Part shown: positions 8,456 through 41,242 of the stretch, one piece after another
Position numbering within the stretch: position 1 is the stretch's first letter
How the letters are laid out: each line of letters starts with the position of its first letter
Assembly (NCBI GenBank): GCA_000004985.1
Contig: GG738859.1
Length of the DNA: 64,000 bases
Reading direction: 5' to 3' (one strand)
Source of the DNA: Naegleria gruberi
Taxonomy: Eukaryota
Program-made: the position numbers and the translations under genes
Notes under the pieces: model-generated
What the model was told of the DNA's origin: nothing
Databases searched by the model: none
Seen by the model: only the letters and a program-made list of their open reading frames with translations

Positions 8456-10594
8456 ATGGGTAATACATGTGCTGTTAATCAAACCAATAATTTAGCAGAG
8501 GTGGATGATTTTGCAGAGAATGGAAGATTTAATTCCTATCTTGCAACTTTACCAAAGCTCTTCACCGAAACAGCAGTACACGGAGAGAAATTCCTCTGTA
8601 CCGCATATGTAACATCAAACTTTAAATCTGTGATATTCGCTACAGCCGATATTAAAAAGAACTTTTTTATGAAGCAAGTCACAAGAAAAAAGTTGAATGA
8701 AATTGTAAGTATTGAGGTGTTGATAATGTGTAGTAGAATGTTATTGTTCCACATATTATAGAGAGATAAATTAGACGTTAATAACACTATTGGATGGTGG
8801 AACTTTTTCACGGCATTAAAACATGCTTTTGTTGCTAGAAAAGTGTCCCTTAAAATTGATGGTGATGAATGTTTATTCAATATTGATTTAAATTTTGCTA
8901 ATATTGGAAGAACTTGTTTATCATTACCACTGAAAAGAGATCCAGAAGCCTTTGAACATTTAACTTCATTCTTTGTTAATCCGCTTCATGATTTTTATAG
9001 TGCTAGAATTGAAAGTGCACCTGTAGAAAAATTAGAACAATTAGAAAAACAAATCAAGTTGTACAAAGATAAAATTGCAGAAGTTGAAAGAGAAATTAAG
9101 GAAAAGTATCCAGATGCTAATACACCCGAAGAAGAAGATGATGGAGGAGATGAAGTTCTTGATGAAGATCAAAAACCAGAACCACCAAAAGAACAACCTA
9201 AAGAAGAACCTAAACCAGTTCAACCTAAAGAAGAACCAAAACCAACACCAGTTGAAGTTGAAGATTTTACTAATTTAGAATCTACTAAGGTTATTAAATT
9301 CTTGGGTGATATTAAGAACAAATTAACAGAAAATAATTCGATAACACTGAAAGAAAAACAATCCTTTGAAAGAATTATTGGTATATTATCAACAGAAGAT
9401 AAATATCAAGAACCATTATCTAAGGAATTACTTTCAGAAACAGATATTGATGTATTTGAATTTCTTAAAATCAAATATGCTAAAGATCAACCTGTTAGGT
9501 TGAGAGGAAAAGATGGTCCAATTGAATTTAAACATGGAGAAGAAGCTAGAAAGCATTTGGAATCTAATAATGTAATACTAACAGCTCCAAGGGAACAATT
9601 ACTAACTATATTTGAAAAATTAGATTCATGGAGTTTTGATGTATTTGAAGTATTTAATGCAACAGGAGGAAATCCATTATTTGCAACATGTTATGCTTTA
9701 TTCTTGAAATATGATTTTATTAAGAAGTTTAATATTAATGAAGAGATTTTTATTAACTTTTTAAGAGAATTAGAAGCAGGTTATCATCCAAATCCATATC
9801 ACAATAATGCACACGCAGCAGATGTACTTCAAGCAACACATTTTATTGTTCAAGAAGGTGGTTTAATTGAAAAGTTAGCAGTTGAAGATTGTTTTGCAGC
9901 ACTTGTTTCTGCAACTATTCACGATTATGATCATCCAGGTTTAAATAATGCATTCCAAGTTAATACTAGAAGTTATTTGGCAACATTGTATAATGATAGA
10001 GCTGTATTAGAAAATCACCATTGTTCTCAAGCCTTTGAATTAATGCGTCAAGACAAGTATAATATTCTGAGTGGATTGAGCAATGAACAAAAGAAGGATA
10101 TTCGTGAAACTATTGTTGAAATGTTATTAGCTACTGATATGGGTCAACATGCAAAAATTGTTGGTAAATTTAAAGGTAGACTTGAAGCTAAGGCAGATTT
10201 TAAGGCTAAAGATGATATTAGATTAGCACTTCAAATTGCTATCAAGATGGCTGATGTTTCAAATCCAGCTAGACCTCTAGGCATTGCTTTGAAATGGACT
10301 GAAAGAATTACAGATGAATTCTTTGCACAAGGTGATTTGGAAAGAAATAGTGGTCTTTCAATTTCACCAATGATGGACCGTGCTACTCAACATGTTGGTA
10401 AAGGTCAAATTGCTTTTATCAATTATCTAGTCACTCCAATGTATGAAAGTTTCTTTAATATTGCTCCTGGAATGGCTTTTTGTAAAAAGTTTATTGAAAA
10501 CAATAGATCTTATTGGGAAGTTCACGCAATTGGTGATAAGAATGATTATGATAAATTGTGGTGGGAACCTCCTGTTGCTGAACCAAAAGAATAA
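8456..10594 (+). CDS. class I (HD-domain) 3',5'-cyclic nucleotide phosphodiesterase, probably cAMP-specific; join(8456..8704,8762..10594)
   Basis: The catalytic signatures YHNNAHAADVLQATHFIV, HDYDHPGLNNAF, LATDMGQH and DVSNPARP are typical of a class I PDE. The N-terminus is MGNTCAVN (Gly2/Cys5, a myristoylation/palmitoylation-type motif), followed by a coiled-coil and a Pro/Glu/Lys-rich linker. A GTAAGT donor lies at 8705 and a TATAG acceptor ends at 8761, giving a 57-nt intron with both exons in frame. Confidence 0.85.
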
Positions 10595-15700: not shown

Positions 15701-16978
15701 CCATACCAACAATATAATAATAACCTATAGTTTGCGACACACCCTATCAACTACGACCGGTACCACACCAAAGCCGTGAAGCAATGGCATAGCAAAAGAT
15801 GTTCGTACATTGAGAGCAAACGAGATCACGATTTTTGCTCTAGAGTAATATTGGACACGACAGAAACAGAGAGTACATACACTATTTACTCAGTGGATAC
15901 AAATTCGTGGCTTGTGTTAGGATCAAAACAAAGAAACGTAGACAAATATCTGCAACATTAACGGCCTTTGAACATTATTAAATTCCGTAGAATACGCTCA
16001 ATTACAAATGTCATGTAAAATTTTCTCTATGTTGGTAAGATTACAAGTTCATCACTTTATACATTCACTAAAGTAGAATTTAGAATACTATCCTAGTAGT
16101 TTAAGCGTTGTTTATGGTACAACTAGAATAAAACAAAGTTTACCTAAGTTTGTGGAGTTATTTCGGAAATTATCATCGATACCAATTGGTTTGATTCGAT
16201 ATATTTCATCCAACTCAATTCTTAATTATTGATTCATCATTCAAGGTTCTATGTCCATCTCAATGTTATACTCCAAGATTTTGTAAATATGATTAAGTAC
16301 AACAGTTTGAGTTTCATTTATTTAACTCTAAATGAATTCGAGATATAAACCATTTTTATTACTGTACAAAATAATTAATAATTTCAACATTATTTGGGTT
16401 ATATTTTTCTTAACGTGCAACAGTTGCAGAACCAGTTCCACCACGAGTGAGGTACGAACGAGCAAATGACAAGCAATAATTTAATTTCAAAAAATCAAAC
16501 AATTTGGATAATGCCAAAACACAAAACAACTGTGATCAGCAAAATTGAAGGAGTTTGTTGCTGAGTTTCCAAATGTCGTCCTTCATTCTTTTTGAAGATA
16601 ATTCTGTTGTGAATGGCTGTTTCTGAATGTTAATGACAAGAAGAATGTAACTAACAAATTACAGTCTTGCACTTAAATAAATCCAACTATTCAGTTCTTT
16701 CCAATTTTATTAATTAAACAGAAGAGTGTTGACAGCACCACAGGTGTTGAAGAGAAAAAATTAAAGTCCATTAATGTTCATTATTATCTGATCTATTTAC
16801 CACATACGTGAATGTAGTAAGAATCCAATAAAGCAACCTGCCATTGGGAGATTTGACTCTATTCAGAAGACGTATCATCTAACAAACAAGGCGCAAATTT
16901 TCATCATGAAAAAGAACAGACAATATCATCAACAAGAAGAAAAAGGAATTATCTTCAAAAAGAAAGAAGGACGAAGAG

Positions 16979-19900
16979 ATGGTGGAGAATAATCGACCTA
17001 TTGTTAATGAAGATGGAATCAAGACATCATCTGAAGCTAAACTAACACAATTTAACCACTCCTCACATCATCAAAGGCTTCATCAAAATATTAACAAGGG
17101 TCTCGGGGAAGAACAACAATACAAATTTCCTTCATCTATTACACCAGTTCCACTGGCCAATATTCATGCCAATGCATCAGCGACTAACTTACTGCTAACT
17201 TCATCAACATTCTTTAATTCTTCAAGTGAATCACTTGGTGGTAGAACCATTTCGAGAAACTCCTCCAATACTCTAAAATCCCTACTAGAAAATGTTCTCC
17301 CTCCATTCTTTACTCCATGTGTGCCACCTCATGCATCATTCAATTACTATTCAGAACATTATTGGGGAGAACATGCCTTATCACTAACCTCCTTCTCTCC
17401 AATTCTTCATTATGAAAAAAAGTCATCTCTAACGATTATTTGTCGATACACACCTCAACAAACTAGGAATTCTTCAAGAAGGGAGAGACCTTCCTCTCAA
17501 AAGGAATTAATAGAGAATGAGATTTATTGTCTGAAAGTTTCACTGGACAAACCATCCATTCCAAAGCTGGAAAGGGATGCAGAAATTTCTCGATTCTTGA
17601 CCAATGAATTTTCTCAAGTGTTGGATCCAACACAACAGGTTATTGTCCGTACTAAGGCCTATTTGTCCGATTATTTTATTCTTGTGAGGGAGTTTATTGA
17701 TTGTGTTTCGTTGAGATTATTCATTGATCGATCGAAAACATACAATGCTAGAGTAGAACCAATTACTGATCATGAGAATTTTGAAACCTTAACAAATGAT
17801 ACTGTAACACTTCTCAATGAAGAACAACGAGTGAAAGAAAACATTACAATATTGGAAAGTAATTTAACACTTGCTATTTCTATTTGTATGAGTGTTGCTC
17901 AACTGCATCACTCAAGAGTTTGTCATGCTGACATTAAGCCAGAAAATATAATTGTAGATGGACCTAAATGCAATATAAGATTGATTGATTTTGGAAAGAG
18001 TACATTCCTCCCTTTGGAGCATCCATTTTTATATACTGATAAAATTATTGGTAGTCGAATGTATTGTGCTCCAGAGGCAACGGGGAAAATTCCAAAACCA
18101 ATAGGTTTCCACACTGATATATATTCGCTTGGATTTGTTCTCTTTGAGTTATTTTCCAAAGAACATCCATTTACCAAGTTTAGGGCAGTAGATTTCGTAT
18201 TTCAACATTTGACTCAACAACCAGAGTCCTTGTTTCAAAATCTAGCAAGAAGGTCTTTTATATCAGCCAATGAAGGAAACCTATTCACAGCTGCTACTAG
18301 AGCAATTTCAAGACTTATTACCAAAGCCATTCAAAAATCTATTGAGAAACGTTATTTGAGTATTTTTGGATTGAAACGAGATTTGCTCTACATACAGAAT
18401 GCTATTCAACTAGAAGATATGGAAGCTCTTGAAAATTTTCAAGCTGGTATGAACGATGTTCAAACAACTTTATCCATACCTTATGGTGTCTATGGTAGAG
18501 AGGAAATTTTCGAAAAATTGAAATTGAAACTTGAAAATATGATGGAATCTAGTGAGTCAATGATTGTCCTTCTGGGAGGCTATAGCGGCATAGGTAAATC
18601 AAGTATTGTTAAGGAGTTTAGGACAAGAAGTAAAACAGCAATACAGTTCTTTGAGGCAAAATACGATCAACATATGAATATCCCTTACTATGCCATTATT
18701 TCTATATGTAAACAAATTATTGGCGACGTTCTTGGAGAATCTGAATCAGTGATTAAGGATTTCAGATTCCAATTTGGTACACTTATCAATTCAGATCAAT
18801 TAGAAATGTTGAGTGATGCAATTCCTGATATGTCATATTTATTTACAACTAATCTAGCCAAAAAGCATACCTCCCCATCAATGGGAGATCAGAATGGAGA
18901 GCGTATGAAGCTCTTTTCACAAGGAAGTAAGTAATATTTTTTTAATTTAACATTATAACAACAATATAGTTATTCATCTCTTTAGTTGTTATACTCATTT
19001 AAAAAAGAAGAGATTGTGCATTTTCTTGGATGACTTGCAGTGGACTGATTTTGATAGCATGAAGCTATTAAAGGAAATTCTTGGAACAACTGGTTCTTGC
19101 GATACTGTTCCTCTTTTAATTATTGGAGCATATAGAAATAACGAAGTGGGAAAGGATCATCCTCTATTTTACTTTTTAGAAAATCTCAAACTTAAAGTGA
19201 ACATTGAAGAAATCCAAGTTGTTGAATTGACACAAGATCAATCTAACATGATTGTCTCAGAGTCTTTAAATAGAGCTGAAACAGAAGAACTAACCAAAAT
19301 ACTCTTCCCTAGGACAAATGGAAACCCCTTCTTTTTAAAGCAGTTATTGGCTGGTTTATTTAAGGATGGAGCTATTTATTTCGATACTCAAACAGATACT
19401 ATTACATGGGATAAAAAGAAAATAGAAAATGCAGAATACATATCTGAAAACGTTATTGACTATCTCCTTGGACATTTGGAGAAATTACCAAAACAAACAC
19501 AAGATATTCTTGCATTTGCTTCTTGCTTTGGAAATAAGTTTTCCAATAAAGACATGCTCCACCTACTCAATCAGCAACAAGAAGACAAGATAGACTTGAT
19601 GCAACTAAAAGAAAGATTGAACTATGCGGTGAAGGAGGGATGGATTTCAAATATCAATTCTGGTCATTTACGATTTAATCATGATAGACTCCAACAAGCT
19701 GCTTATGAATCACTGCCTTTGAATGAAAGGTTGAGAATTCACTATAACTATGGTAAGCAGCTTTTAAAAAAAGCAGAGGAAGATGATTCTTTGGAGGAAC
19801 GTTTATTTGATATAGTTGTACAGTTAAATCACAAACATGATGATCCTGCTTTCTTGGAGAATAGAGACGAGAGAAGATTACTCATTGACCTCAATAATAG

Positions 19901-22900
19901 AGCGCAAAGNNNNNNNNNNNNNNNNNNNNNNNNNNNNNNNNNNNNNNNNNNNNNNNNNNNNNNNNNNNNNNNNNNNNNNNNNNNNNNNNNNNNNNNNNNN
20001 NNNNNNNNNNNNNNNNNNNNNNNNNNNNNNNNNNNNNNNNNNNNNNNNNNNNNNNNNNNNNNNNNNNNNNNNNNNNNNNNNNNNNNNNNNNNNNNNNNNN
20101 NNNNNNNNNNNNNNNNNNNNNNNNNNNNNNNNNNNNNNNNNNNNNNNNNNNNNNNNNNNNNNNNNNNNNNNNNNNNNNNNNNNNNNNNNNNNNNNNNNNN
20201 NNNNNNNNNNNNNNNNNNNNNNNNNNNNNNNNNNNNNNNNNNNNNNNNNNNNNNNNNNNNNNNNNNNNNNNNNNNNNNNNNNNNNNNNAAATCTGATATT
20301 CTCAATTTGCCAGATATTGATGATTTGGAAAAGTGGCATCTTATTTGTTTGCTCACTCAATCTTGTCCTGCTGTTTTTCATTTGAATAACTCGCTCAGCA
20401 AACACTACTTTATGATTATGATATTAATATCGTCTGATATAGTTTTAAATAATGGTGTTACTCCTCTTTCTCCATTGTTAATTTCAGTCTTTGCATGGTC
20501 TTGGTGTAATTTTGAGTTTTATCCTCAGATGAACATGTTCTTAGAGGCAGGATTAGAGATGGAAAAGACTAGATACAGGAATGAGCATGAATTGGCAAGT
20601 TGCACATTTATCAAGTTGATGAGTTATTACTTTTCGCCAACAATTAACCCTCTTGAGGTGTGGAATATATCGGAGGAAGCCTTCTTATTGTCTGTGAAAT
20701 CAAAGAACAAACACTATGGTGGTTTCTCTATTCTATGGTATCCATTCCATCACTTATTCTATAGCCACGGAGATGTAAAGACTTCTATTGGATTGAGCTT
20801 GAATTCAATTGAGATTTTAAAGAGAAATGGAAATGTTATGTTGATGGATGCCAGTAAAATGATACTGGAATTGAAATATGTTCTTTCAGGAGATGTAGAC
20901 CATTTCCAGCCAACATATGTAAGCCAAGTGAAGGAATATCCATCCTATAGACAAATGCACTACTCGTTCAAGGGAATTTCACTCTATTTCCAAAATGAGA
21001 TTGAAAAATCTTTCAAGTGTATGGAAAAATCGTATGATTTTAGAGAAGACTCTGTTGGCATGTGTTCTAGCTGGATTGATTTAATCTTTCTAGGTTTAAT
21101 CTCAGCTATCTTTTTGAGAAGTGCTCAAGAAAAGATTGAAAAAGCCCAAGAAATATTGAAATACTCCATAGAAAGATTGGAAATGATTTCCCAAGTTAAT
21201 TCTTCTGTTTTTCTTGCTCCTTTGGAGTTAATAAGAGCCGAGACGTTGTACTCAGAATATTGTAGAACAGGTGTCGAAAATACTAGAAAAATCATTTCTC
21301 ACTATAGAAAGAGTTATGTTATGGCTGAAAAGGAAAGAAATACCTTTTTAGCTAGGCTGATTAATTTGAGAACAGGAGAATTTTATAACAGTCTAGGTAT
21401 GGATGATGGTATTAGTGGAAACTACTTCCTTAGAGCTATGGAATCTTTTGAACAGTTTGGTGCTTCCATCGTTGTTGATTATATTTTGGAGAATTATTCA
21501 GGTCACATTGATGGCTATTCATCATTTAGTAATAGAAATCCTGAACAAGTATTCTCTAATACTTCTCTATCTGATGAATCAACAGATCACACTCTTGCTG
21601 GAGTAACAAAGAGCAGAATTTCTGAATCAACAGAATTGGATTTTAGAGAGATTTTCATTTCAATTCTGCCAATTCTTTCAGAACAAACGTTATCACCAAG
21701 ATGTTGTTTGATTTTGAAGAGAGATTCAACAGTTTATGTAGATGCCGAATTTAATGCAGGTATGAATTCTATTGAAGCACTTTCGTCCATCAAACAATTC
21801 GAAAATAGTGATTTGGACAAGTTTTCAGATTCATTCCCTCTCAAGATGATCCACAGAACTCTAAGATCCAGAACAGAGCAACAACTCGTATGGAATGACA
21901 ATGAGAAAGAGTATTACTTTGTGAAGAATGTAGTGGCCTCTGCTTTATCTATTCCTATCATGAAGAAAAAGACAGTAATAGGTATGCTTTTATTATTTAT
22001 ATTATTTAATGTATTAAGGTTGTATATACTTGGAAAATAAGGAAACGAAGGATGTATTCACAACTGAAAAAATTAACCTTGCCAAACTTATCATCTCTAT
22101 CAGTTTAGACAATGCTGGAATTTTCACATCCATTAACAAATCCTATGCTAGGTTTTTACCTGCTGAATTCCTAAAATTGCTTGGCAAGAGTCATGTAACT
22201 AAGATAAGGTTGGGTGATGCAATTTCTAGGGAAATGACAGTGCTCTTCAGTGATATTTATGGATTTACAGAGATTATGGAGGGACTTTCTGCAAAGGATG
22301 GCTTTGCTTTTATTAATCTACTATTGAAGAGTATTGCACCTCCAATTTCAAGAAACTCTGGATTTATTGACAAGTTTGTTGGTGATGGAATATTGGCATT
22401 GTTTATTGAACCACAAGGAGCTGTCACTGCAGCTTTAGAAATGATTTCAGAATTGGAAGTTTTCAATACTAGAAATAATACCAATGTAAAGTTGGGTATT
22501 GGTTTGCATCATGGTATTGTTCAACTTGGTACAATTGGATATGAGCAACGTTTGGATGCTACTGTTATTTCAGATACTGTGAACACAGCTAGCAGATGTG
22601 AATCTCTCACAAGAACTTTTCATTCACATATTCTAGTTACTAAACCAGTTATGGATGTTGTTACAGTGCCACACAGTGTGATAAGTACCGTATTGGGTAA
22701 ATTCATGCTGAAAGGAAAACACATACCTCATCAAATATACAATATAGCTTCCAAGTCATGGAAAGGAAGTGGTACTGCTAAAGAATTCACTTTACTAAGC
22801 AAAGTTATTGATCTCTTCTCAAGGAGTGAATTTACCGAATCATTTGCCCTCGCAGAAACAATTCTCAAGAATACAAAGAACAATACCATTATAGCTGCAT

Positions 22901-23019
22901 GCAACATGTATAAGGAAGCATCAACATTATACGCATCAGTTGTTTTACCAAGTGAATGGCAAGGTGAAATTAGGTTGACCAAGGATGGAGAAGTCAGAGA
23001 GTACTTTCAAGATAAATGA
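16979..23019 (+). CDS. multidomain signalling protein of about 1980 aa: Ser/Thr protein kinase domain, P-loop STAND/AAA_16-type NTPase, TPR-like helical region, GAF-like domain and class III adenylyl cyclase catalytic domain; proposed join(16979..18930,18986..21981,22019..23019); contains the N-gap
   Basis: The kinase motifs are HADIKPENIIVDG, IRLIDFGKS and GSRMYCAPE...DIYSLGFVLFELFS. The NTPase has Walker A LLGGYSGIGKSSIVKEF and Walker B KKRLCIFLDDLQWTD, plus the FNHDRLQQAAYESL motif typical of kinase-AAA-TPR/GAF sensor proteins. The segment ending KKKTVIG|CIYLENKE is GAF-like. The cyclase has VLFSDIYGFTEI (metal Asp), FIDKFVGDGILALF (substrate Lys and metal Asp) and GTIGYEQRLDATVISDTVNTASRCESLT (Asn/Arg transition-state pair). 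Intron 1 is 55 nt (GTAAT..CTCTTTAG; an alternative is 18927-18969, 43 nt). Intron 2 is 37 nt (GTATGC..TTAAG) and restores the GAF-to-cyclase frame exactly. Confidence 0.7.
19909..20288. other. assembly gap: 380 consecutive N inside the NTPase/TPR region of the kinase-cyclase gene
   Basis: A literal run of n characters sits in the sequence. The reading frame is conserved across it only if the N count is correct. Confidence 0.99.
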
Positions 23020-23290: not shown

Positions 23291-24903
23291 ATGACAAGTA
23301 AATTAATAGATTTACGTACAATAACAGCATTATCAATATTTCTAACAAGTATAATAATAGTTAATGCTATAAATCAACATCAACAATTTTATACAACAAT
23401 TGTTCATTTAGTTTCATCTAAAATTAGTAGAATAATATTAATAGTAGATTTAATATTATTAATTATTTATTTTGGTAAATTATTATCAAAATTATTTTTT
23501 GGAACTTTAAGAATTTATGAAGAAGAAGTTATTTGGGAAAAGGGTTATTATGCTTTAATTGAAACTTGTTTAGCAATGACCATTTTTAGAGAAGAATTAT
23601 CTACTAGAATGTTATCAATGATGATCACTTGTTTATTTTTAAAAATATTTCATTGGATTTCTGAATTGAGAATTAAACATGTTTGTATTTTATTTATATT
23701 TATTTTATTTAATTATTTATTTTAATAATTTAATTTTATATTTTTATATTTAATTAAATATTTAAATAGTTAGAATCACTTCCAGAAACATCAATTAATT
23801 TATTTTTTAGATTATTTTCATGTTTATTTATATTAATTGGAATTGATATATATTTTTCATATGAATTAATTCAATTTTATTTTAAAGAAGGAGTAACATT
23901 AAGAATATTATTTTTATCTGATTTTCTAATAATGGTAATAATGGGTATTAGTATTAGTATTAGATTAATATTTCATGCATATAATTTATCTAAACAAGAT
24001 GAAGAAGGTAATAGTGAATGGGAATCTAGAGATGTTTATATATTTTATTTAGAAATAATATCAGAATTATTACAATCATTAGTTTATTTATCATTCTTTT
24101 TATTAATAATGACTAAATTTGGATTACCATTTCATTTATTAAGAAATATATATATTACATTAAGTAATGTTAAAAAAAAGATATTAGATTTATATAATTA
24201 TAGAAGAGCATCTTTAACATTGGATCAAAAATTTGAAAATGCAACTCAAAATGATTTAGATGAATTTGATGGAGTATGTGTTATTTGTAGAGAAGATATG
24301 ATTACAAATACTTTACAAAATCCAATTAAAAAATTACCATGTAAACATTTATTTCATTCTAAATGTTTACGTGGTTGTTTAGAACGTTCACAAGAATGTC
24401 CTATTTGTGGTCGTTCAATTGATTTATTATTAAAAGAACAAGAAGATCAATTAAAATTACAACAACAATTACAATTAAATAATTTAAATAATTTAAATAA
24501 TAATAATGGAAATGTTGGACATCATCATCATCATACACCAACAAGTACTAGTAATACTACTACTACTACCACAACTAGTACTACTATTAATAATATTAAT
24601 AATACTAGTAGTAGTACAGTTGATAATAATATTACAAATTTATTTACATCACAACAAGAAATATTAAATCAAATGAATATTAATTTAATTCAACAACAAC
24701 AACAACAACAACCATTAAATTTATTTAATTCTACTACTACTATTAATGATAATCAATTAATTGAAACAAATGAAAAATTACAACAAGTAATGATTGATAT
24801 GTATATTAGATATTTAGAATCAATGAAAGATAATATTAATCAAACTTTAGAACAATTAAAACAATTAAATGATTTTAATCAATCAAATAATAATAATCAA
24901 TAA
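23291..24903 (+). CDS. HRD1: ERAD E3 ubiquitin ligase HRD1/synoviolin (RING-H2); join(23291..23680,23770..24903)
   Basis: The N-terminus (ITALSIFLTSIIIVNAINQHQQFYTTIVHLVSSK...FGTLRIYEEEVIWEKGYYALIETCLAMTIFREE...FLKIFHWISELRI) aligns with human SYVN1 (LTALAVVNAYYQKQQFYPSVVYLTKSS...FGQLRAAEMEHLLERSWYAVTETCLAFTVFRDDF...FLKCFHWLAEDRV). The RING-H2 is CVICREDM...LPCKHLFHSKCLRGCLERSQECPICG. An 89-nt intron runs from GTTTGT at 23681 to AAATAG ending at 23769. The C-terminal tail is Asn/Gln/His/Thr-rich low complexity. Confidence 0.85.
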
Positions 24904-32091: not shown

Positions 32092-35000
32092 ATGTCATCA
32101 AAAAGATCTAATTTATTACTCTCTAAAGATTATCAAAGTAAAAAATCATCAAAACAAACAACAAATCAAAATAATGATGATGATGAAAATCTAACACAAG
32201 AAGATAAAATTAATAGAAGAGTACAAAGTGTATTAAAAACACTTCCATCTAAAAAGGATGAAAATTTAATTAAATTTAAATCATTCTATGAATGTATTAA
32301 AGATGTTAAAATACTTTCGGAAGTACAATTTGATACTTATAGAAAAGAAGAATCAAAGAATGAACATGATTCAACTACTTTTTTATATGATAAAATGTTA
32401 GAATGGGATGAATTGAATTTAACTGTATGTTATTTATATTCTCAATATTTAATTTATAATTTACAATAATAATAGAAACATTATATTCAATTTAGATCAA
32501 ATATTCAATCATTTGTTAGAACATTACCTGAAATGATACATCACAAAGAAACTATTTGTGATATTTTTGTTAATCATTTAAGAATTAAGGATTCTCTTGC
32601 TTATCAACCTATTTTAGAGTAAGTAGTAGTTTTTATTTTTCATTACAATAATATTAAATATTCATTACAATAATATTAAATATTTAAAAAAACAGTCTAG
32701 TAACAATATTTGCTAAAGATTTACGACAAGAATTTTATCCATTATTTCCACGTTTATTTTATCCAATAGTATATAATATAAGTTCTGATAATATAGAATT
32801 GAATGGATTAATATTTAAAAGTTTAGCATTTTTATTTAAATATTTACAAAAATATATTATTAAAGATATATCATTATGGTTTGAAAAGTATAGTAAAATA
32901 CTTTCACATAAGAAATGGTATATTAGAAAATTTGCAGCTGAAAGTTTTTCATTTTTAATTAACAAACTTTCAGATGAAGAATTAAAAATTTATGTTGAAA
33001 AAGTTTTTAATTTATTAATTGAAAAACCATCACAAATAATGTATGATGGTGTTAGTCAAATGTTTTTTGAATCAATGAAAGGTATTTTAGGTAATTTACA
33101 TTCTAAAATGTCAAGATTATTACCTTTATTATTTAGACAATTAAATTGGAATTTAAATTATAATGGTACTATTAAACAACAATTAGCTGATATTGGTAAC
33201 AAATTTACTTTAATTGAAAAATGTTTAATTTTATTAAGAGATTATTCTAAAAATAAGTTAATTGCTAAACAAATTTGGGATTTATTTGTTATTGAAATTA
33301 AATTTTTAATTAATTCTATTAATTTAAATAATAATAATAATAATAATCAAATTAAATATTAATAATAATTTAAATAATATTAAAAATAATTTAAATAATA
33401 TTAAAAATTTAAATAATTTAAATAATAATGAATATTTAAATATTCAAATAGGATATTTTATACAATTAATTAGAACATTTAATACTATTGAAAAATATAA
33501 TGAAGAATCAATTTATTTAATTTTAAATTTATTAAATAGTAAAAATCTATTAATAGAATTTAATGCTCAATCATCACAAGCATTATTTTCATTTATTTCT
33601 GATATAATTGAAACATTACAAAGATCAGATATAATTGAAAATGTTAATAATTTATTATTTAATTGTTTTTATATTAAAGATAAACAAACAGTTTATACTT
33701 TTTATAGAAAATTAATGAAAACAATTGGAAATGAACAAGAATCAAATACAATTGTTAAAGAATTTTTAAGATTTGTTAATGATGATATTAATTATAATTT
33801 TGATTCAACTGTTGCTTTTTTATTAAATTTTATTCATACTAATACTACTAGTAATAGTAATTTAGATACAAATTTGGAATATACTTTATTATCTGATAAA
33901 AATTCTAAATTTATTCAAATTATTTATAACAAATTTATTGAAATTATTTCAAATATTAAATCACAACAAGATTTAATTCAATTTTCAAAACAATCAAATT
34001 CTTTATTATTATTATGGTCTATTTTAAATATTTTATCTATTTATGGTAAAAAATCAGATCAATATTTAAAAAATTTATATGAAAATGTTTATAAATTTTT
34101 ATTACAATTTATTAAATTAATTGATCAAAGTCAATATGAAAAGAAGGAATTACAATTATTACAAATTATTATTGCACAATCTTTAACTTTATTAAATCAA
34201 GTTTTACATTTCTATAATAAGAATTTTAATAATTTAATTGAAATTGTTATGGAAATTTCATGTAAATTTGGTTCATCATTACAAGTTTTAATTTCATGTA
34301 ATCAATTAATTGATAATGTAGAGTAGGTTTTTATTTTAATTTTTAATTTTAATTTTATTTAATTTTAATTTAATTTTAATTTTTAATTTTAAATAGTTCC
34401 AATTTATTAACAAATGATAAATTTAAAATAATTGCAGAATCATTAAAATCCAATCTTCAAAGTAAATCTGATAATCTAAGATTAGAAACATTAAAATATT
34501 TAACTAAATTTGAACAAGATGAAATTCAAAAAGGAATTGTTCTTAATAAGGTAGAAACTACTAAATGTGTAGTTTTAGAATTTTTAAGAGATTCAGAAGA
34601 ATGTGGATTTGATTGGGATCAATCACGTAATCGTACAGTTTTATTAGAAAAGGCTAATGAATTTTTAAAACGTTACACCATTCCACAAATTTACAAAACT
34701 TTAATTTCTAATTATGTATTTGGTTCATATTTTACAAAATATCAAATTGTATGGGAACCAACAAGTAATTTAGCATCAACAATGATGAGAATTAATTTTA
34801 AAGAATTTTGGAATTTATTAATACCAATTATTTCAAATATTTATCAAAAATGTAAGTTTTTTTTAATTTTATTTAATATTTTAATTTAATTTTAATTAAT
34901 AATATAATTTAATATTTAATATTTTTAATAATATAATAATATAATAACAAATCAGATGGAGAATATAAAAAAACACATTATAAATCAATGATTTATAAAT

Positions 35001-38000
35001 CTAAAAAAAGAGATGAAGAAACTAGTTTAAATTTTGAATCATTTTCTAAACAAGTTAAAAAAATAGAAAAGATTTCAGATATAGAAACTATATTTTTAAA
35101 AATTATTAAAGATGTTTCTAAACAACATACAGATTATTCAACATATTTAGATATGATATTTAATATATTTATAAATGGAGCAAGAGATTCTAAAAAAGAA
35201 GATGATATATTATTAGTATTTAATTCCTTTTATGAAAATGAATTTAAAGAATATGATATTGAAGAAGTTGTTAATTTTATTACTAGAAATCCAATGACTG
35301 GTCGTTTAGAAAAATTATTAAATTTAATTTCAGAATTTAATGAAGATTTCTTTAAAAAGGAAAAATCTAAATTTATCAAATCAGTTATTTTTAGATTATT
35401 TTCAACTTCAACAATATCAATTCAATTATTATCTTTAAAATGTTTACAAAAGTTTAATTTACCATATTTAACAAGTAAAACTGTTAAAAATTTACAAAAA
35501 GTAATTTCATCTAATAGAAGTGTTGAACATTTATCTAAATTAGATTTTATTAATATTCCAAAACAATATAAACAAGAATATATTCATTTACATTTAAAGG
35601 TTATTGAACCTTATTTATTAATGTTTGATATGACTAAAAAGAGAGGTAAAAATTCTAAAGATGCAATGATTAAAAAATGGAAAATTAGAGTTCATCAAGT
35701 TATTGAATTTTTAGGTCAATTACCAAAAGAAACACTTGAATATTTTATTAACATGTTATTTAATAGATTTAAATCTATTGATAATAATAATGGTAATGAT
35801 AGTAATATTGATAGTAATATTGAGAGTACAAATACTAATAATAGTGATGGTAAATTTGCTGAAGATTTAATCAAGGCAAATACATTCCAGTTACGTTGGT
35901 TATTAGATATTATTGAAGAAATTTTAACATGTTTAACTGGAAATTATCATTACTTTTATAATCAAGTATTGGATTTATTAATTACTATTATTGAATTGAG
36001 AGTTGATGCTCATGAAATGGAAGTTGATCAAGAAGAAGAAGAACAAAAATTACTTGAACAACAATTACTTGAACAAGAAGAAGAAGAAGAAGAAGATGAT
36101 GAACAAGATGAATCATCCACTATTAAAGATTCTGATAGTAAATCATCTGAAAAATCAGACAAGATGACTGATGAAGTTGATGATGAAGATGATGACCAAG
36201 ATGATGATGATGATGAATCTACTGCTACTTCTATTCAAACTACTTCTACTACTAAATCAACTATTGCTAAATCTACTACTTCTACCACAACTACAACAAC
36301 TGATAATAATACTAGCTACTACTGTTAATAAGAAACCAATTATTAGACAATATTATAAACCAGCATCATCTAAACAAAAAGTATCATTAACATTAACATT
36401 TAAAAGAGCAGTTGAATTACTTGAATTATTCTTTGATAGAAAACAAGAATTTGATTATAGTATTGAATTTACATCACACGTAATTTCATTATTTACAAAA
36501 TTCTTTGAAAATATTAATAAGAAATCATCAAGAATTGAAGAATTACCTTCTTACTTTTCAATTTTATTTTCATGGTTTGATAAACCTAAACTTTATTATT
36601 TAATTAAATATTATGAAAAGGAATTAATATTTAAATTTATTGAATTAATTGATCAATATAATGTTTCTAATGTTGTATTTGATCAAGTTTTATCTATTTT
36701 TGATAAAATATTATCAAATAAGGATGAAATTTTTATGAATTTAAATCCAAACTTTTCAAAAATTACAACAGATATTGAAAATGGTTTAACTATTGGTATG
36801 AAAATATTTGAACCTTCAATTATTAATCAAATTTTAATTGCATTTTATAATTTATTTATTGAATCTAATTATTCATCTAAATCTATTAATAATAATAATA
36901 ATAATAATAATTATAAATCTAAAAATAATAGTTATAATAATAATAATAATAATAATAATAATTTAAACAAATTAAATGATGAATTAAATGAACAATCAAA
37001 TGAAAAACAAGAATTTTCTAAAAAATGTTTTAAATTAATTGATAAAATGAAAGGTTATTTTGATGAAACATCACCTGCTGATATTATTTTAACCTTTTAT
37101 GGAACATCAATTAGAGATGGATCTTCTTTAAATGAAGATGAAGCACGTGTTTTATTACATTTATTTAAAAAATATTTACCATATTCAAGTGAATCTATTA
37201 AAACATTATATATTATACATTTTTCTAAAATGTTTATTTATAATAATGAAACTATATTTAGAAATCAAATTTGTGATATAATTGAAAAATTAGCAATTGG
37301 ATTTAATAATGAAAAATTAAAATTTACATCTAAAATTATTAATGGATTAAATGCACAAATTGAATCACATTTAACAAATTTAGATACATCATCTAGAATT
37401 GAAATATTTAAAGAATTAAATTCAAATTTAAATATAATTTCAAATTTAAATGAAATTGAATTATTTCCAATTATAGGTAATTTAATATTCTTTTTAGGAC
37501 ATAAAGAATGGATATTACGTGATTCATCTTCACAATCATTATTAAATATTATTGAAATTATTAAATTTAATAATGAAATGAAAGAAATTAAAAGATTATT
37601 AATTTTACATGTTAAAAGATTATCATTTTCAGATAAATTATTAGAAAAGAGTGAATCAATGTTAGTTTATTCTAAAATGATTGATCAATTTATTGAATTG
37701 GAAAATTTAAAACCATTTTCAAAATCATTAGAATTAATTTCAAATGTTAATTATCAAAAGAAATTAGAAGGTTTACAAATTATTAATTCTATTTTAATTC
37801 CAATTGAAAAATGTAAAATTCAACAAGATTATATTTATCAAATTGTACCTCCACTCATTTATGAATTAATGGTAATTAATGATAAATCTATTCAAGATTT
37901 AGTTAAACAATTATGTATTTATTTAGTAACTGTTTTAGATTGGAATTATTCACATCCAATTTTAAATCAATTAGTTACAATGATGGGTACATATGGTTTA

Positions 38001-41000
38001 AAGGTTTTATCAAAGAGAAAGAAATTAGCATTGGATATTATATGTCAAATTGTTGATGTATTTCCATTTGATAAAATTAATGATCATGGTTTTAATAGTA
38101 GTTATAGTTATAATAATAGAAATGATAATAATAGATATAATAATAGAAGACATGAATCAGAAGAACCATTATCAAATAGTACAGTTACTATTGAAAAGGA
38201 TACTACAAATGATGATGATGATAATGATGCAGACGACAATGAAATGATTGATGAAAATGAAATTCCAAAAGGTAGAAGAATGAAGAGATATTTCATGAAA
38301 GATTTCATTCCAAAAGTAACAAAATTCCTTTGGGATAAGAAATTAGAAATTTATGTCATGCGTATGCAAGTTTGTTTCTTAATTATTAAAGTATTAAGAA
38401 GATGTGATAAAACACAATTAGATGTACATTTATCTAAAATGGTATTAGATGTATTAGGTAAATTAAAGAGTAAAGATGAAGAACAACAACAAGTTGCTGG
38501 TAAAGCATTAATTGACATGTTTAAAGAATTGGGAAGTTCATATTGAAAGTAATGTCATCAGATCACAAAACTACTCACATTATTACACAAGCTGTACATT
38601 CAGTCATGTTAATTTTATTGAATGAAAATACATATCCACCTTTAAAAACATTTAAAAAGAGAAAAGTTTCACGTTTTGATATTGAAAAGGCACAAGATTA
38701 TGAAAATCAATCATCAATAGGTGAAAATTCAGTTTCATTAACTGCATCTGATAGTTCTTCATCAAAACATTTCAAATCAAAACATGAAAATACTTTATTT
38801 AATTGTTTTGAATTATTAGGTTCAATTATTGATATTAAGAAGAGTTTATCATATATTATTAATGATATTAATTTCAAAATTAGAATTGTACATAATGCTG
38901 AAATTTTAAAGAGATTTGAATTTGTATTTAAATTTTTATTGAAAGGTTTAATGAGAAATAGACAAGTTATTCAATCTAATCAATCTATTACTAATACTAT
39001 TACTAATAATACTACTACTAAACAATCTAATCAATCTAATAATAATAGTGAAATGTTATTAAATGTAATTAAAAATGAATTATATCATTATAGATTATAT
39101 AAAAAGAATTTTACAACAATAACAGATGGAGAACAAGATAGATTTCATTCTGTTAAAACTACTAAAGATAGAAAGGAAGAAAATTTCCTTGTACAAAAAG
39201 AACCAGGTAGACTTGGTGCAATTGATCAAGCTAATGATATGAAAATGAAATTATTAGCAGGATTAATTGATAATTCACATATTATTGTACAATTTTATTT
39301 AAAAATGTTTGAAAAATGTATTAAAAGATTTAAAATTCAAGTAGATAAACATTTAGAAATGATGAATGAAATAATACCATTATTATTAAAATATGTTAGT
39401 GGTAATCATTTAAATGTAGCATTGGTTTCATTTAGAATTTTAATTGAAATTTGTAAACGTACACCTAAAGTATTTAAAATATTAGAAGATTCTAAACAAT
39501 TATTATTAAATTCTACATTTGATATATTAACAAATTCAGGTATTGATTCTACAAATTTAGAAACATGGGAAACTATATATACAGGTATTAAATATTTTTT
39601 ACAATCTGATATTTCACATAAATATCCATTATCATTAGGACAATTAGATATTTTATTAGATATGTTAAAAATTGAAATTTCATCAACTAGAAAAACCTAT
39701 TCAATTCAAACATTTCAAATTTTATCAAATTTAATTGATAATAAGGTACAAATACCACAAATTTATGATTTAATGGATAAATCAATTACAATTATGTTAA
39801 CTACACTTGAAATGGAAATACAAAAAACTATAGTTGAAATGTTGGTTAATTTTTATTTAAATTATCCATTTACAAATGAAGTATTACAAGACAAGTTAAA
39901 TTATTTATTTAAAAATGTTTTAAATGAAAATATGTCAAATGAATCTAAATTATCAATTTTAAATTTAATTCAAACTATAATTAAAAAATTTCCAAATAAT
40001 TTCCTAAATGATAAAACTGAATTAATTTATTATCCTCTAATTTTAGAATTAGAAAAACAATGTAAAAAACGTGTTATTGCAGGTGATAACAAATCAATTT
40101 CATCAATTGTTTCAAAATTAAGAGAAACTTTACAATTTTTTATTAAAATATTAAATGATGAAAATTTAATTAAAATTATTAAAATTACAAATGATTGGAT
40201 TTTAAATGAAAAGAAATTAAAACCAATTGGAGTTAATTCTATTTTAATTTTATCAAATGTATCAAATGGTAGTAAATTAAAATCATCATCAGAATTTTAT
40301 GAAAATATGATACCTCAATTAATTTCTATAATTGAAAATTCAGATACAAATTTAGAAAAATATCCAAGTTTAGTATTAGAAACATTGGAATGTTTTTATT
40401 CATTATTTTCACAATCTATTATTTCATTCCAACATGTTGATGAAATTTGGAATTCCTTATTAAAAATAATTTGTGATGAAAATGATTTGAGAAGTGAAAT
40501 TAGATTAGAATCTTTGAAAATCTTTGAATTATTTGTTTCTAAAAAGAAGAAGAATGAATCTAAAATTTTAAATCATTTACAATATTTAGAACAAATGTCA
40601 ATTTCAATTATAGAATTATTTAAATCACAATATATTAATGATACAAATGTAATTGTAATTGTTAAAGTTTTAATTTATTTATTTAAATTATTAGATTCTA
40701 ATAATGGAAGTGAAATTTTACATAAATTATTTAAATCTTTACGTAAAATTTCAAATCAAACATTTGATTTTGACACCAATGAAAATATTACATTTAGAAG
40801 AATGAATATTTTAAAGTTATTTATAGGTTTAGCTTCTAAATATGGTAATCAATTACAACCTTATTTAATTTACATGACACCATTAATTTATAGATGTTGT
40901 GAATTTTCAAATAGAGATAAATCAATTGTAACAATTGAATTGGAGAAATTTGCTAAAGAATCTAAACAATTAATTCAACAATCATTAACAGATTCAAATT

Positions 41001-41242
41001 TATTTGTTCAAGCTTATGAAGAAGGTAGAAAATTAGTTGAAAGTAAAAGTGAAAAGAAATCAAAATCTAAAGAACAATCAATCATATCAAAACCATCACA
41101 ATATGCTAAAAAGAGATTGGAATCAAATTCTAAAAAGAATGATACTAAAAAGAGAAAGTTAAAAGAATCTTTTAATCAACCAACTGTACAAATATCATCA
41201 TCTGGTAATGTACAACAAGTTAAAAAGAAGAAGAAGAAGTAA
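32092..41242 (+). CDS. UTP20: UTP20 (DRIM) small-subunit processome component, about 2900 aa, at least 5 exons; three apparent frameshifts
   Basis: Exon 1 (32092..32424) ends ...LEWDELNLT and exon 2 (32476..32618) begins KHYIQFRSNIQSFV..., matching human LLKWRELNLTEHFGKFYKEVIDKCQSFNQL. Exon 3 starts at 32696 and reads ...HKKWYIRKFAAESFSFLINKLSDEEL against human HKKLHIRNFAAESFTFLMRKVSDKNAL. The introns are 51, 77, 74 (34323..34396) and 104 (34852..34955) nt. The C-terminus is a Lys-rich tail, ...KKRKLKESF...VKKKKKK, like human UTP20. Frame breaks with no possible intron occur at about 33328-33362 (an A/T run), 36300-36330 and 38540-38550. Confidence 0.85.
33361..33432 (+). repeat. AT-only tandem direct repeat (unit about 24 nt, aataatttaaataatattaaaaat, 2.5 copies) inside the UTP20 coding region, encoding NNLNNIKN repeats
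   Basis: A direct sequence repeat is visible at 33361-33384 and 33385-33408 with a partial third copy. It lies immediately after one of the UTP20 frame breaks. Confidence 0.6.

Follow-up and report, generated by a model that had tools for sequence, protein, structure and literature searches.

A Naegleria gruberi gene that joins a protein kinase-like domain, a STAND-type NTPase and a GAF-like domain to a predicted class IIIb nucleotidyl cyclase

Positions 16979-23019 on the plus strand of the window, the 64,000-nucleotide stretch of DNA that was analysed, form one three-exon gene of Naegleria gruberi NEG-M, which encodes a protein of ~2000 residues with the domain order protein kinase, AAA_16/STAND NTPase, helical region, GAF, helical linker, class III cyclase and short helical tail. 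The most probable reading is that its product is a large cytosolic signalling protein, in which an atypical Ser/Thr kinase, a STAND NTPase, a TPR-like region, a GAF domain, a coiled linker, a class IIIb cyclase and a tail make up the cyclase-output form of a bacterial and fungal kinase-AAA-GAF chassis whose usual output is a histidine kinase. The gene is part of a small Naegleria family. An earlier note on this DNA had claimed a single gene with this domain order, and the gene model, the Pfam domains and the continuous homologues bear it out. It had also presented the fusion as a new signalling module, a claim that goes too far, because a public N. gruberi cyclase annotation, a near-identical gene copy, five N. 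lovaniensis paralogues and bacterial ORFs all precede it. We regard the gene as a variant, so far uncharacterised, of a signalling design that is already known; literature searches with the accessions or the kinase-NTPase-GAF-cyclase architecture found no description of it. The 'cAMP-centred organism' of the note, which was read as a dictyostelid, was mistaken: the source is N. gruberi, and both the gene and a neighbouring phosphodiesterase match Naegleria best. As the window is not from a dictyostelid, the picture of dictyostelid cAMP signalling is unaffected.

The gene model joins three ORF pieces (16979..18934, 19014..22040 and 22030..23019) and runs from an ATG at 16979 to a stop codon at 23017-23019; the spliced coding sequence comprises 1986 codons, including 127 that read X. 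All exons, introns and domains given here lie on the plus strand. Exon 1 (16979..18926), defined by its ORF, opens with the start codon and encodes an N-terminal region rich in Ser and Thr, followed by the kinase and the beginning of the NTPase. Exon 2 (18970..21982), defined by ORF and homology, takes in Walker B, the helical (winged-helix and TPR-like) part and the bulk of the GAF domain, and is interrupted by an assembly gap of 379 N (19910..20288). Exon 3 (22020..23019), for which ORF, Pfam and an AF2 model agree, completes the GAF domain and continues through linker helix, cyclase and helical tail to the stop codon. The choice of ATG is supported by the alignment of its MVENN start with MLEN of the N. 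lovaniensis protein P0001, and extending the ORF upstream, as in the model of the N. gruberi copy P0331, was rejected, as an in-frame TGA lies at 16907-16909 and nothing on the plus strand is homologous to residues 1-114 of P0331. Two mini-introns had been proposed, and both are confirmed as GT..AG introns, the first in its 43-nt option. Intron 1 (18927..18969), placed by homology, is the sole frame-preserving splice that gives the ...FSQGIIHLFS... sequence of the homologues, and intron 2 (21983..22019), which is 37 nt long and falls within the GAF domain between TVIG and CIYLEN, is also used by the public model P0302. Both splice junctions show unbroken homology to the N. lovaniensis proteins and to P0331. 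N. lovaniensis has no intron at the intron 2 site, where the junction (KSVLGCVYLEN) is continuous DNA inside an uninterrupted 915-aa ORF that carries the helical region, the GAF domain and the start of the cyclase. We asked whether 19 inserted residues in the N-lobe of the kinase (NYYSEHYWGEHALSLTSF) could stem from an unspliced in-frame intron, but the segment lacks a GT donor and recurs in P0331, and is thus coding. The gene was said to sit in a GC-richer island, and its GC3 (0.26-0.45) is indeed above that of its immediate neighbours (0.04-0.15), but the higher GC content extends over the entire 7-23 kb stretch, and GC3 values of up to 0.28 occur in other genes of the window. The enrichment is a regional and codon-usage feature and is no evidence on origin.

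Two public N. gruberi proteins correspond to this gene. XP_002678939 (P0302), an 854-aa 'soluble adenylate/guanylate cyclase', is 100% identical to its post-gap half, and XP_002671953 (P0331), a gap-free 2148-aa 'serine/threonine protein kinase' encoded on another scaffold, is 95.9% identical. At least five full-length paralogues are present in N. lovaniensis, and the annotation of N. fowleri divides the orthologue into two genes, separated by an in-frame TAA with an ATG two codons on, a reading with which an independent assembly agrees. Given this split orthologue, covalent fusion is not obligatory. Within ±10 kb of the gene there is no synteny with N. lovaniensis or N. fowleri. The gap corresponds to ~143 residues of helical-region sequence in P0331 versus 128 codons in the window, so the gap is too short by ~45 nt, and the apparent continuation of the reading frame through it is uninformative. 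That the gene continues across the N run, as had been claimed, is upheld by the gap-free 96%-identical copy and by the N. lovaniensis orthologues, all of which are continuous.

These relatives bear on whether the locus holds one functional gene. A division into two genes, one for a kinase/NTPase and one for a GAF-cyclase protein, would accord with the start of P0302 after the gap and with the annotation of the N. fowleri orthologue as two genes split by an in-frame TAA, yet we judge it highly improbable: the start of P0302 is an internal Met just past the N run and hence a gap artefact, P0331 and the five N. lovaniensis proteins are continuous, the 915-aa N. lovaniensis ORF holds helical region, GAF domain and cyclase start together, and at the N. 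fowleri stop position N. gruberi has no stop and reads MESFEQFGAS. Separate kinase/NTPase and cyclase genes, which the earlier note had named as grounds for refutation, are therefore seen in N. fowleri and not in N. gruberi or N. lovaniensis. We consider it very unlikely, too, that the locus is no independent functional gene but a redundant haplotype, or a duplicate in decay, of XP_002671953. The 95.9%-identical copy on another scaffold would fit such an origin, as would the unsequenced gap, the difference near the gap edge (...NRAQ in the window versus ...NRAAKK in the other copy) and a 341-nt segment just upstream of the ATG that appears inverted relative to the other copy; the gap hides ~140 residues, and a disabling lesion may lie there. 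Against this, all 1859 sequenced codons are open with every catalytic and nucleotide-binding motif intact, the two copies differ by scattered substitutions and small in-frame indels, and an allele would still be a functional gene.

A Pfam domain scan, which had been suggested as a check, detected Pkinase, AAA_16 and Guanylate_cyc, all above cut-off. The protein kinase domain (17396..18388), located by Pfam, an AF2 model and motif alignment, scores 87.3 bits against a cut-off of 31.7 for Pkinase (PF00069; E 1.5e-24), and its AF2 model has a complete, bilobal fold with PknB as the best match (TM 0.78). It keeps the beta3 Lys (in IYCLKV), the alphaC Glu (in ERDAE), the catalytic-loop Asp (HxD) and Asn, the DFG motif (17984-17998) and the APE motif (18065-18085). 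The catalytic loop, CHADIKPEN, is of the non-RD type (HAD), and a Gly-rich GxGxxG loop was not found in the kinase domain, whose N-lobe strands have no glycines at that place (SPILHYEKKSSLTIICRY); in the motif alignment, this loop is degenerate in the bacterial chassis proteins too. Given the missing loop and the non-RD sequence, the domain may be a pseudokinase. The AAA_16/STAND-type P-loop NTPase (18488..19124), which spans intron 1, scores 88.8 bits against a cut-off of 32.6 for AAA_16 (E 7.7e-25), with additional weak matches to nSTAND6 and NB-ARC. Its Walker A motif is GGYSGIGKSS (18575-18604) and its Walker B segment is LCIFLDDLQWTD (19014-19049), in which LCIFLDD is present. It is followed by a helical region of ~840 residues (19125..21641), with putative winged-helix and TPR-like repeats and the family motif FNHDRLQQAAY (19674-19706), that is colinear with the helical arm of bacterial kinase-AAA-GAF proteins and in part hidden by the gap. 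Pfam TPR gave no significant match in the window protein, with part of the region concealed in this way; the relative P0325 matches TPR_CHK1. A PADLOC scan returned generic kinase and cyclase (PycC) similarity only.

The GAF domain (21642..22089), which spans intron 2, was assigned from a Pfam match below cut-off and from homologues: GAF (PF01590) scores 17.4 bits in the window protein and 21.5 bits in P0001 against a cut-off of 22.4, and lies above it in the paralogue P0305 (28.6 bits) and in a colinear ORF from Fortiea (68.8 bits). The family profile also matches the GAF domain of PDE2A at E 0.004. A long helical linker (22090..22230; …SINKSYARFLPAEFLKLLGK…), for which AF2 predicts a helix at residues 15-43, connects the GAF domain to the cyclase; its motif is kept in the bacterial homologues and aligns with the linker of bPAC. 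Beyond the cyclase, the C-terminal tail (22723..23016) is modelled as three helices resembling a TPR-like hairpin and a short strand (AF2 helices at 253-305). This tail is conserved in relatives, two of which (P0182 and P0184) give Pfam TPR matches at the equivalent place.

The class III nucleotidyl cyclase catalytic domain (22231..22722) was identified by Pfam, phmmer and AF2/Foldseek. Guanylate_cyc (PF00211) scores 58.9 bits against a cut-off of 21.9 (E 6.2e-16), and phmmer matches the domain to bPAC and OaPAC at E 7e-17. The claim that the class III catalytic set is intact is confirmed: the metal Asp motif VLFSDI (22240-22269), the motif with metal Asp and substrate Lys, IDKFVGD (22366-22389), and LDATVISDTVNTASR (22552-22605), which holds the Asp-x-Thr, Asn and Arg, could all be placed, and VLFSDI, KFVGD and VNTASR align with the corresponding residues of bPAC, so that one chain provides both metal Asp residues as well as the transition-state Asn and Arg. 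The proposed Lys/Thr assignment also holds, as in the HMMER alignment the K of IDKFVGD and the D-x-T of LDATV fall on K197, D265 and T267 of bPAC. The Lys / Asp-x-Thr pattern is nearly invariant in 40 relatives, and all six canonical cyclase residues are kept in the window protein, P0331, P0001, P0002, P0303 and P0333. The AF2 model of the cyclase (pLDDT 91) matches OaPAC, bPAC and CyaC with a Foldseek probability of 1.0 and a target TM of up to 0.8; its nearest structural neighbours, OaPAC, bPAC, CyaC and P. aeruginosa CyaB, are homodimeric adenylyl cyclases of class IIIb. The domain lacks the Glu/Cys (or Glu/Gly) pair typical of guanylyl cyclases. It is probably a homodimeric class IIIb adenylyl cyclase and, given a Lys / Asp-x-Thr pattern like that of bPAC, would convert ATP to cAMP. 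Elsewhere in the family, neither the first metal Asp nor the catalytic Asp of the kinase is retained in P0305, and a Willaertia relative, P0309, is catalytically degenerate; judged by these two sequences, not every family member is an enzyme.

An output other than cAMP, whether from a guanylyl or pyrimidine cyclase or from a silent dimerisation or regulatory module, is unlikely by our reckoning. Such an output would agree with the automatic UniProt name 'Guanylate cyclase' of the N. lovaniensis paralogues and with the 70 bits that the PADLOC Pycsar model PycC gives the domain, slightly above its Pfam Guanylate_cyc score; degenerate relatives exist in P0305 and P0309, and a few residues cannot fix specificity with certainty. 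However, the UniProt name is merely that of the Pfam family, the guanylyl cyclase pair is missing, both metal Asp, the Lys, the Asp-x-Thr, the Asn and the Arg are exactly as in bPAC, and the nearest solved structures are all adenylyl cyclases. Moreover, bPAC has to be changed at the same three residues (K197E/D265K/T267G) to become a guanylyl cyclase (PMC4569695). There is, in addition, a very slight chance that the protein is a eukaryotic NLR/Avs-like STAND sensor, in which ligand-triggered oligomerisation of the NTPase would join the cyclases and raise a cyclic-nucleotide alarm, possibly one other than cAMP. Were this so, the protein would parallel, in an amoeba, the bacterial defence systems that signal through cyclases, such as Pycsar, and the fission in N. 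fowleri would mean that sensor and cyclase can also work in trans.

For the favoured adenylyl cyclase, we envisage that two chains pair via their GAF-linker helices, so that the cyclase domains would form a head-to-tail homodimer with two active sites. The conformation of these helices would set cyclase activity, as would nucleotide-dependent oligomerisation of the NTPase, and the kinase domain might autophosphorylate or relay the signal to other proteins. At this locus, the present model replaces the public 854-aa post-gap cyclase with a protein of ~2000 aa that starts with a kinase. It defines a Naegleria family in which a bacterial-type kinase-NTPase-GAF arrangement has a cyclase output, with at least two members in N. 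gruberi and at least five in N. lovaniensis, together with one split orthologue of the pathogen N. fowleri; at least 81 cyclases are reported for the genus (PMC9928731). These kinase-NTPase-GAF-cyclase proteins could offer a tractable system in which to study the gating of a class III cyclase by a STAND NTPase and a GAF domain; the same question arises for the NTPase/TPR region of mammalian soluble adenylyl cyclase, which is large and poorly understood.

The closest known architecture is bacterial. Single ORFs with the order kinase-AAA-GAF-cyclase occur in Fortiea sp. LEGE XX443 (NZ_JADEXZ010000002.1), a Spirochaetota MAG (JBCCIA010000014.1) and a Gammaproteobacteria MAG (MBA3662551.1, annotated 'AAA family ATPase'), and align colinearly at 30% identity (kinase and AAA, E 5e-81; GAF, linker and cyclase, E 3e-53). 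These so far uncharacterised Pkinase-AAA_16-GAF-Guanylate_cyc proteins resemble the Naegleria protein in order and length (1754-1790 aa) and share its GAF-cyclase linker motif and Lys/Asp-x-Thr cyclase type, whereas they are prokaryotic and intron-less, with canonical kinase and GAF domains of far higher Pfam scores. In a rough NJ tree of linker and cyclase, the Naegleria clade groups with heterolobosean GAF-cyclases (84%) and not with the bacterial fusions, the base being unresolved. The fusion may have arisen by whole-gene transfer or by independent assembly, both of which are compatible with this tree. The closest solved catalytic domains, those of bPAC/BlaC, OaPAC, Spirulina CyaC and P. 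aeruginosa CyaB (E 7e-17 to 1e-13), share the fold, identical metal Asp, Lys, Asp-x-Thr, Asn and Arg residues and a long helix from sensor to cyclase, but they carry BLUF or other small sensors, lack kinase and NTPase domains and are 24-29% identical. Mammalian soluble AC (ADCY10), Dictyostelium SgcA and mycobacterial Rv0386-type proteins also link a class III cyclase to an AAA_16/STAND NTPase and helical repeats, in the reversed order with the cyclase first, and without a kinase or GAF domain; ADCY10 and SgcA have two tandem cyclase domains that form a pseudo-heterodimer, unlike the single C-terminal domain of the window protein, and ADCY10 matches its cyclase no better than weakly (E 3e-4). 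In bacteria, cyclase-AAA_16-TPR proteins such as P0042 likewise join a cyclase to an NTPase and helical repeats, with the cyclase first and neither a kinase nor a GAF domain. The TOMM kinase/cyclase fusion (TIGR03903) has kinase, cyclase and AAA/TPR parts too, but in the order kinase-cyclase-NTPase; it is the second-best NCBIfam match, at 86 bits against a cut-off of 705.75 and over the NTPase region only (profile 479-869).

The next-best matches after Naegleria (25-32% identity, E down to ~1e-100) are the cyanobacterial HstK 'dual protein kinases' and the fungal group X hybrid histidine kinases (such as C. albicans CHK1 and S. pombe Mak2/Mak3), a chassis family described in PMC1262709 and PMC9069115. 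They have the same chassis of Ser/Thr-kinase-like, AAA_16, helical/TPR and GAF domains, and differ in their output, which is HisKA/HATPase with or without a receiver; in the window protein, Pfam finds neither HisKA nor HATPase_c, and a cyclase follows the GAF domain instead. Both histidine kinase and GGDEF outputs have been recorded on this chassis (PMC1262709 and Pfam domain lists). Finally, the amoebozoan 'cyclase kinases' of Acanthamoeba and Physarum, which form expanded families, also combine a kinase and a cyclase in one protist protein, but these are transmembrane proteins of another lineage, in which the cyclase lies between two kinases and the NTPase and GAF domains are absent (PMC4758236).

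In the window's ORF scan, three plus-strand pieces cover the cyclase gene (16979-23019), and two GT..AG mini-introns of 43 nt (18927-18969, plus strand) and 37 nt (21983-22019, plus strand) join them into a 1986-codon coding sequence that extends from the ATG at position 16979 to the stop codon at 23017-23019. Among the frame-preserving splices of intron 1, only the 43-nt choice reproduces the ...FSQGIIHLFS... stretch of the homologues, and removal of the 37-nt intron, which is also used in the public N. gruberi gene model XP_002678939.1, restores the GAF motif ...TVIGCIYLEN.... The homologue sequences and the public intron 2 therefore agree with the earlier note, which had proposed a single spliced gene with two mini-introns. 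Exon 2 contains an assembly gap of 379 N (19910-20288), and the apparent in-frame continuity over this run carries no information. Continuity across the gap is instead upheld by full-length N. lovaniensis proteins and by XP_002671953.1, a gap-free 2148-aa sister copy. Opposite the 128 codons' worth of N in the window, the sister protein contributes ~143 helical residues; judged by this comparison, the gap would be ordinary coding sequence whose size is underestimated by ~45 nt. At its left edge (19900-19909) the window reads ...NNRAQ(ag), as compared to ...NNRAAKK in the sister copy, a difference that a one-base error at the edge of the gap could explain.

The best whole-protein matches are N. 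lovaniensis proteins of 1990 aa (53% identity) and 1916 aa (47%), together with an N. fowleri protein. In the exhaustive representative search, the post-gap part is 100% identical to the 854-aa XP_002678939.1 (UniProt D2V9T5), annotated 'soluble adenylate/guanylate cyclase [Naegleria gruberi strain NEG-M]'. These matches assign the window to N. gruberi and rule against a dictyostelid source, so the 'cAMP-centred' organism of the earlier note is not borne out. The sister copy (D2VVC1), encoded on another N. gruberi scaffold and annotated 'serine/threonine protein kinase', falls in the same 90% cluster; the 1851 residues that can be compared with the window protein show 95.9% identity. In N. lovaniensis the family numbers five or more full-length proteins (P0001, P0002, P0303, P0332 and P0305), and at least 81 cyclases were counted for the genus in a pangenome study (PMC9928731).

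Could the kinase/NTPase and cyclase be separate genes in N. gruberi? The N. lovaniensis P0001 locus argues strongly against this reading, as the helical region, GAF domain, linker and start of the cyclase all lie within one unbroken 915-aa ORF; at the site of N. gruberi intron 2, the DNA of this locus runs on without a break. A division of this kind is found in N. fowleri: in its orthologue an in-frame TAA (VFQX01000061.1, 15615-15617) separates the helical region from the GAF domain, an ATG lies two codons downstream, and two genes (1619 and 611 aa) are annotated. The same TAA is present in an independent Logan assembly (SRR29240419, 1473-1475), and its position is occupied by Leu in N. lovaniensis and Glu in N. 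gruberi. In N. fowleri the gene thus appears to have split naturally, giving one protein with the kinase and NTPase and another with the GAF and cyclase domains. Elsewhere in the family, the N. lovaniensis paralogue P0305 (XP_044547802) has lost the first metal-binding Asp of its cyclase (FAGI replaces FSDI) and the catalytic Asp of its kinase (HGG and DLG replace HxD and DFG), and the cyclase of a Willaertia magna relative (KAL9643390) is degenerate, lacking both metal-binding Asp residues and the Lys.

A Pfam scan of the spliced protein detected Pkinase (E 1.5e-24), AAA_16 (E 7.7e-25) and Guanylate_cyc (E 6.2e-16) domains, and every motif quoted in the earlier note is present in the window. 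The GAF domain scores 17.4 bits in this protein, below the 22.4 cut-off. Its assignment can be regarded as secure at the family level, since the domain exceeds the Pfam cut-off in P0305, the region colinear with it in a bacterial homologue reaches 68.8 bits, and a profile built on this region of the family matches the GAF domain of PDE2A. The AlphaFold2 model of residues 100-649 (pLDDT 81) adopts a complete bilobal kinase fold that best matches PknB (TM 0.78). Motif alignment indicates that the kinase keeps the β3 Lys, αC Glu, HxD Asp, Asn, DFG and APE elements; it is of the non-RD type (HAD) and lacks the Gly-rich loop. A 19-residue insertion in the N-lobe region (NYYSEHYWGEHALSLTSF; 17345-17401) occurs in both N. 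gruberi copies but not in N. lovaniensis or N. fowleri; it was rejected as an intron because it has no GT donor.

The exon 3 model (pLDDT 91) consists of a long helix, a class III cyclase fold and three helices; by structure it comes closest to OaPAC, bPAC, Spirulina CyaC and P. aeruginosa CyaB. In the alignment both metal-binding Asp residues and the Asn/Arg pair are kept, so a full catalytic set is present in one chain, and by analogy with its homodimeric matches the protein is most likely a homodimeric adenylyl cyclase. The class IIIb Asp-to-Thr substitution is linked with bicarbonate-responsive enzymes. A HMMER alignment places the Lys of IDKFVGD and the Asp and Thr of LDATV on K197, D265 and T267 of bPAC, respectively, the residues altered in the triple mutant (K197E/D265K/T267G) that makes bPAC a guanylyl cyclase (PMC4569695). 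The catalytic-residue reasoning of the earlier note is sound.

The gene is surrounded by ordinary eukaryotic genes (UTP20, WDR75, RasGEF, a Hrd1-like RING protein, a mitochondrial carrier, the WASH subunit CCDC53 and NCA2). A class I 3',5'-cyclic-nucleotide phosphodiesterase gene (8843-10594, plus strand; PDEase_I, E 1e-83), whose product shares 75% identity with an N. fowleri protein, lies ~6 kb upstream. In Willaertia magna, a homologue of this phosphodiesterase (ABK040_010041) and the degenerate cyclase-family relative (ABK040_010008) apparently share a 533-kb contig, as judged from equal contig sizes and close locus tags. The minus strand carries an unbroken 2668-aa ORF (43720-51726) whose sole recognised domain is a C-terminal RasGEF. 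A 29-nt inverted repeat (16576-16604 and 16946-16974; 97% complementary, arms 341 nt apart) precedes the cyclase gene, its right arm stopping 5 nt short of the start codon. In the sister protein, residues 97-123 match the minus strand beside the left arm and residues from 115 on match the plus strand from 16949, so the 341-nt inter-arm segment appears to lie in the opposite orientation to that in the other N. gruberi copy.

The 'GC-richer island' ascribed to the gene holds in part: its GC3 (0.26-0.45, at a GC content of 0.34-0.36) exceeds that of its immediate neighbours (0.04-0.15), but the GC-richer zone is the entire 7-23 kb stretch, and GC3 reaches 0.28 in other genes of the window. GC3 is strongly uneven among the genes of the window (e.g. 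23932-24903, 1431-2735 and 34988-41242), with values of 0.04-0.09 for several housekeeping-type genes versus 0.26-0.45 for the cyclase gene. Because three Naegleria species share the family, its composition gives no evidence of a recent transfer.

For the N-terminal two thirds of the protein, the next-best relatives are bacterial kinase-AAA-GAF proteins with histidine kinase, PP2C, GGDEF or sigma-54 activator domains as outputs, followed by fungal group X histidine kinases; proteins with this chassis have been named 'dual protein kinases' (PMC1262709). Our search of the full-text literature for Naegleria cyclases with kinase, AAA or GAF domains and for the accessions, the N. gruberi genome paper lying outside it, returned no account of this protein or its architecture. 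The 'new signalling module' of the earlier note is not new, as public proteomes already contain the family, with half of the gene annotated at this locus, and the same architecture occurs in bacteria. A 1754-aa protein from a gammaproteobacterial MAG (MBA3662551.1) contains Pkinase, AAA_16, GAF and Guanylate_cyc domains, and the same chassis with a cyclase output is encoded by single ORFs of 1783 aa in the cyanobacterium Fortiea sp. LEGE XX443 and 1790 aa in a Spirochaetota MAG. In a rough neighbour-joining tree of the linker and cyclase region alone, the Naegleria proteins cluster together at 100% and then, at 84%, with Acrasis kona and other GAF-cyclases, and the base of the tree lacks resolution. 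On these sequences, the fusion may have arrived as one complete bacterial gene or may have been put together independently. The Fortiea ORF is colinear with the N. gruberi protein, with 30% identity over the kinase and NTPase (E 5e-81) and 30% over the GAF, linker and cyclase, including the linker motif (E 3e-53). P0335, a 1706-aa protein with the same chassis and a cyclase output, has a class IIIa cyclase of the Lys/Asp type. The N. gruberi protein is thus a cyclase-output variant of a known signalling chassis.
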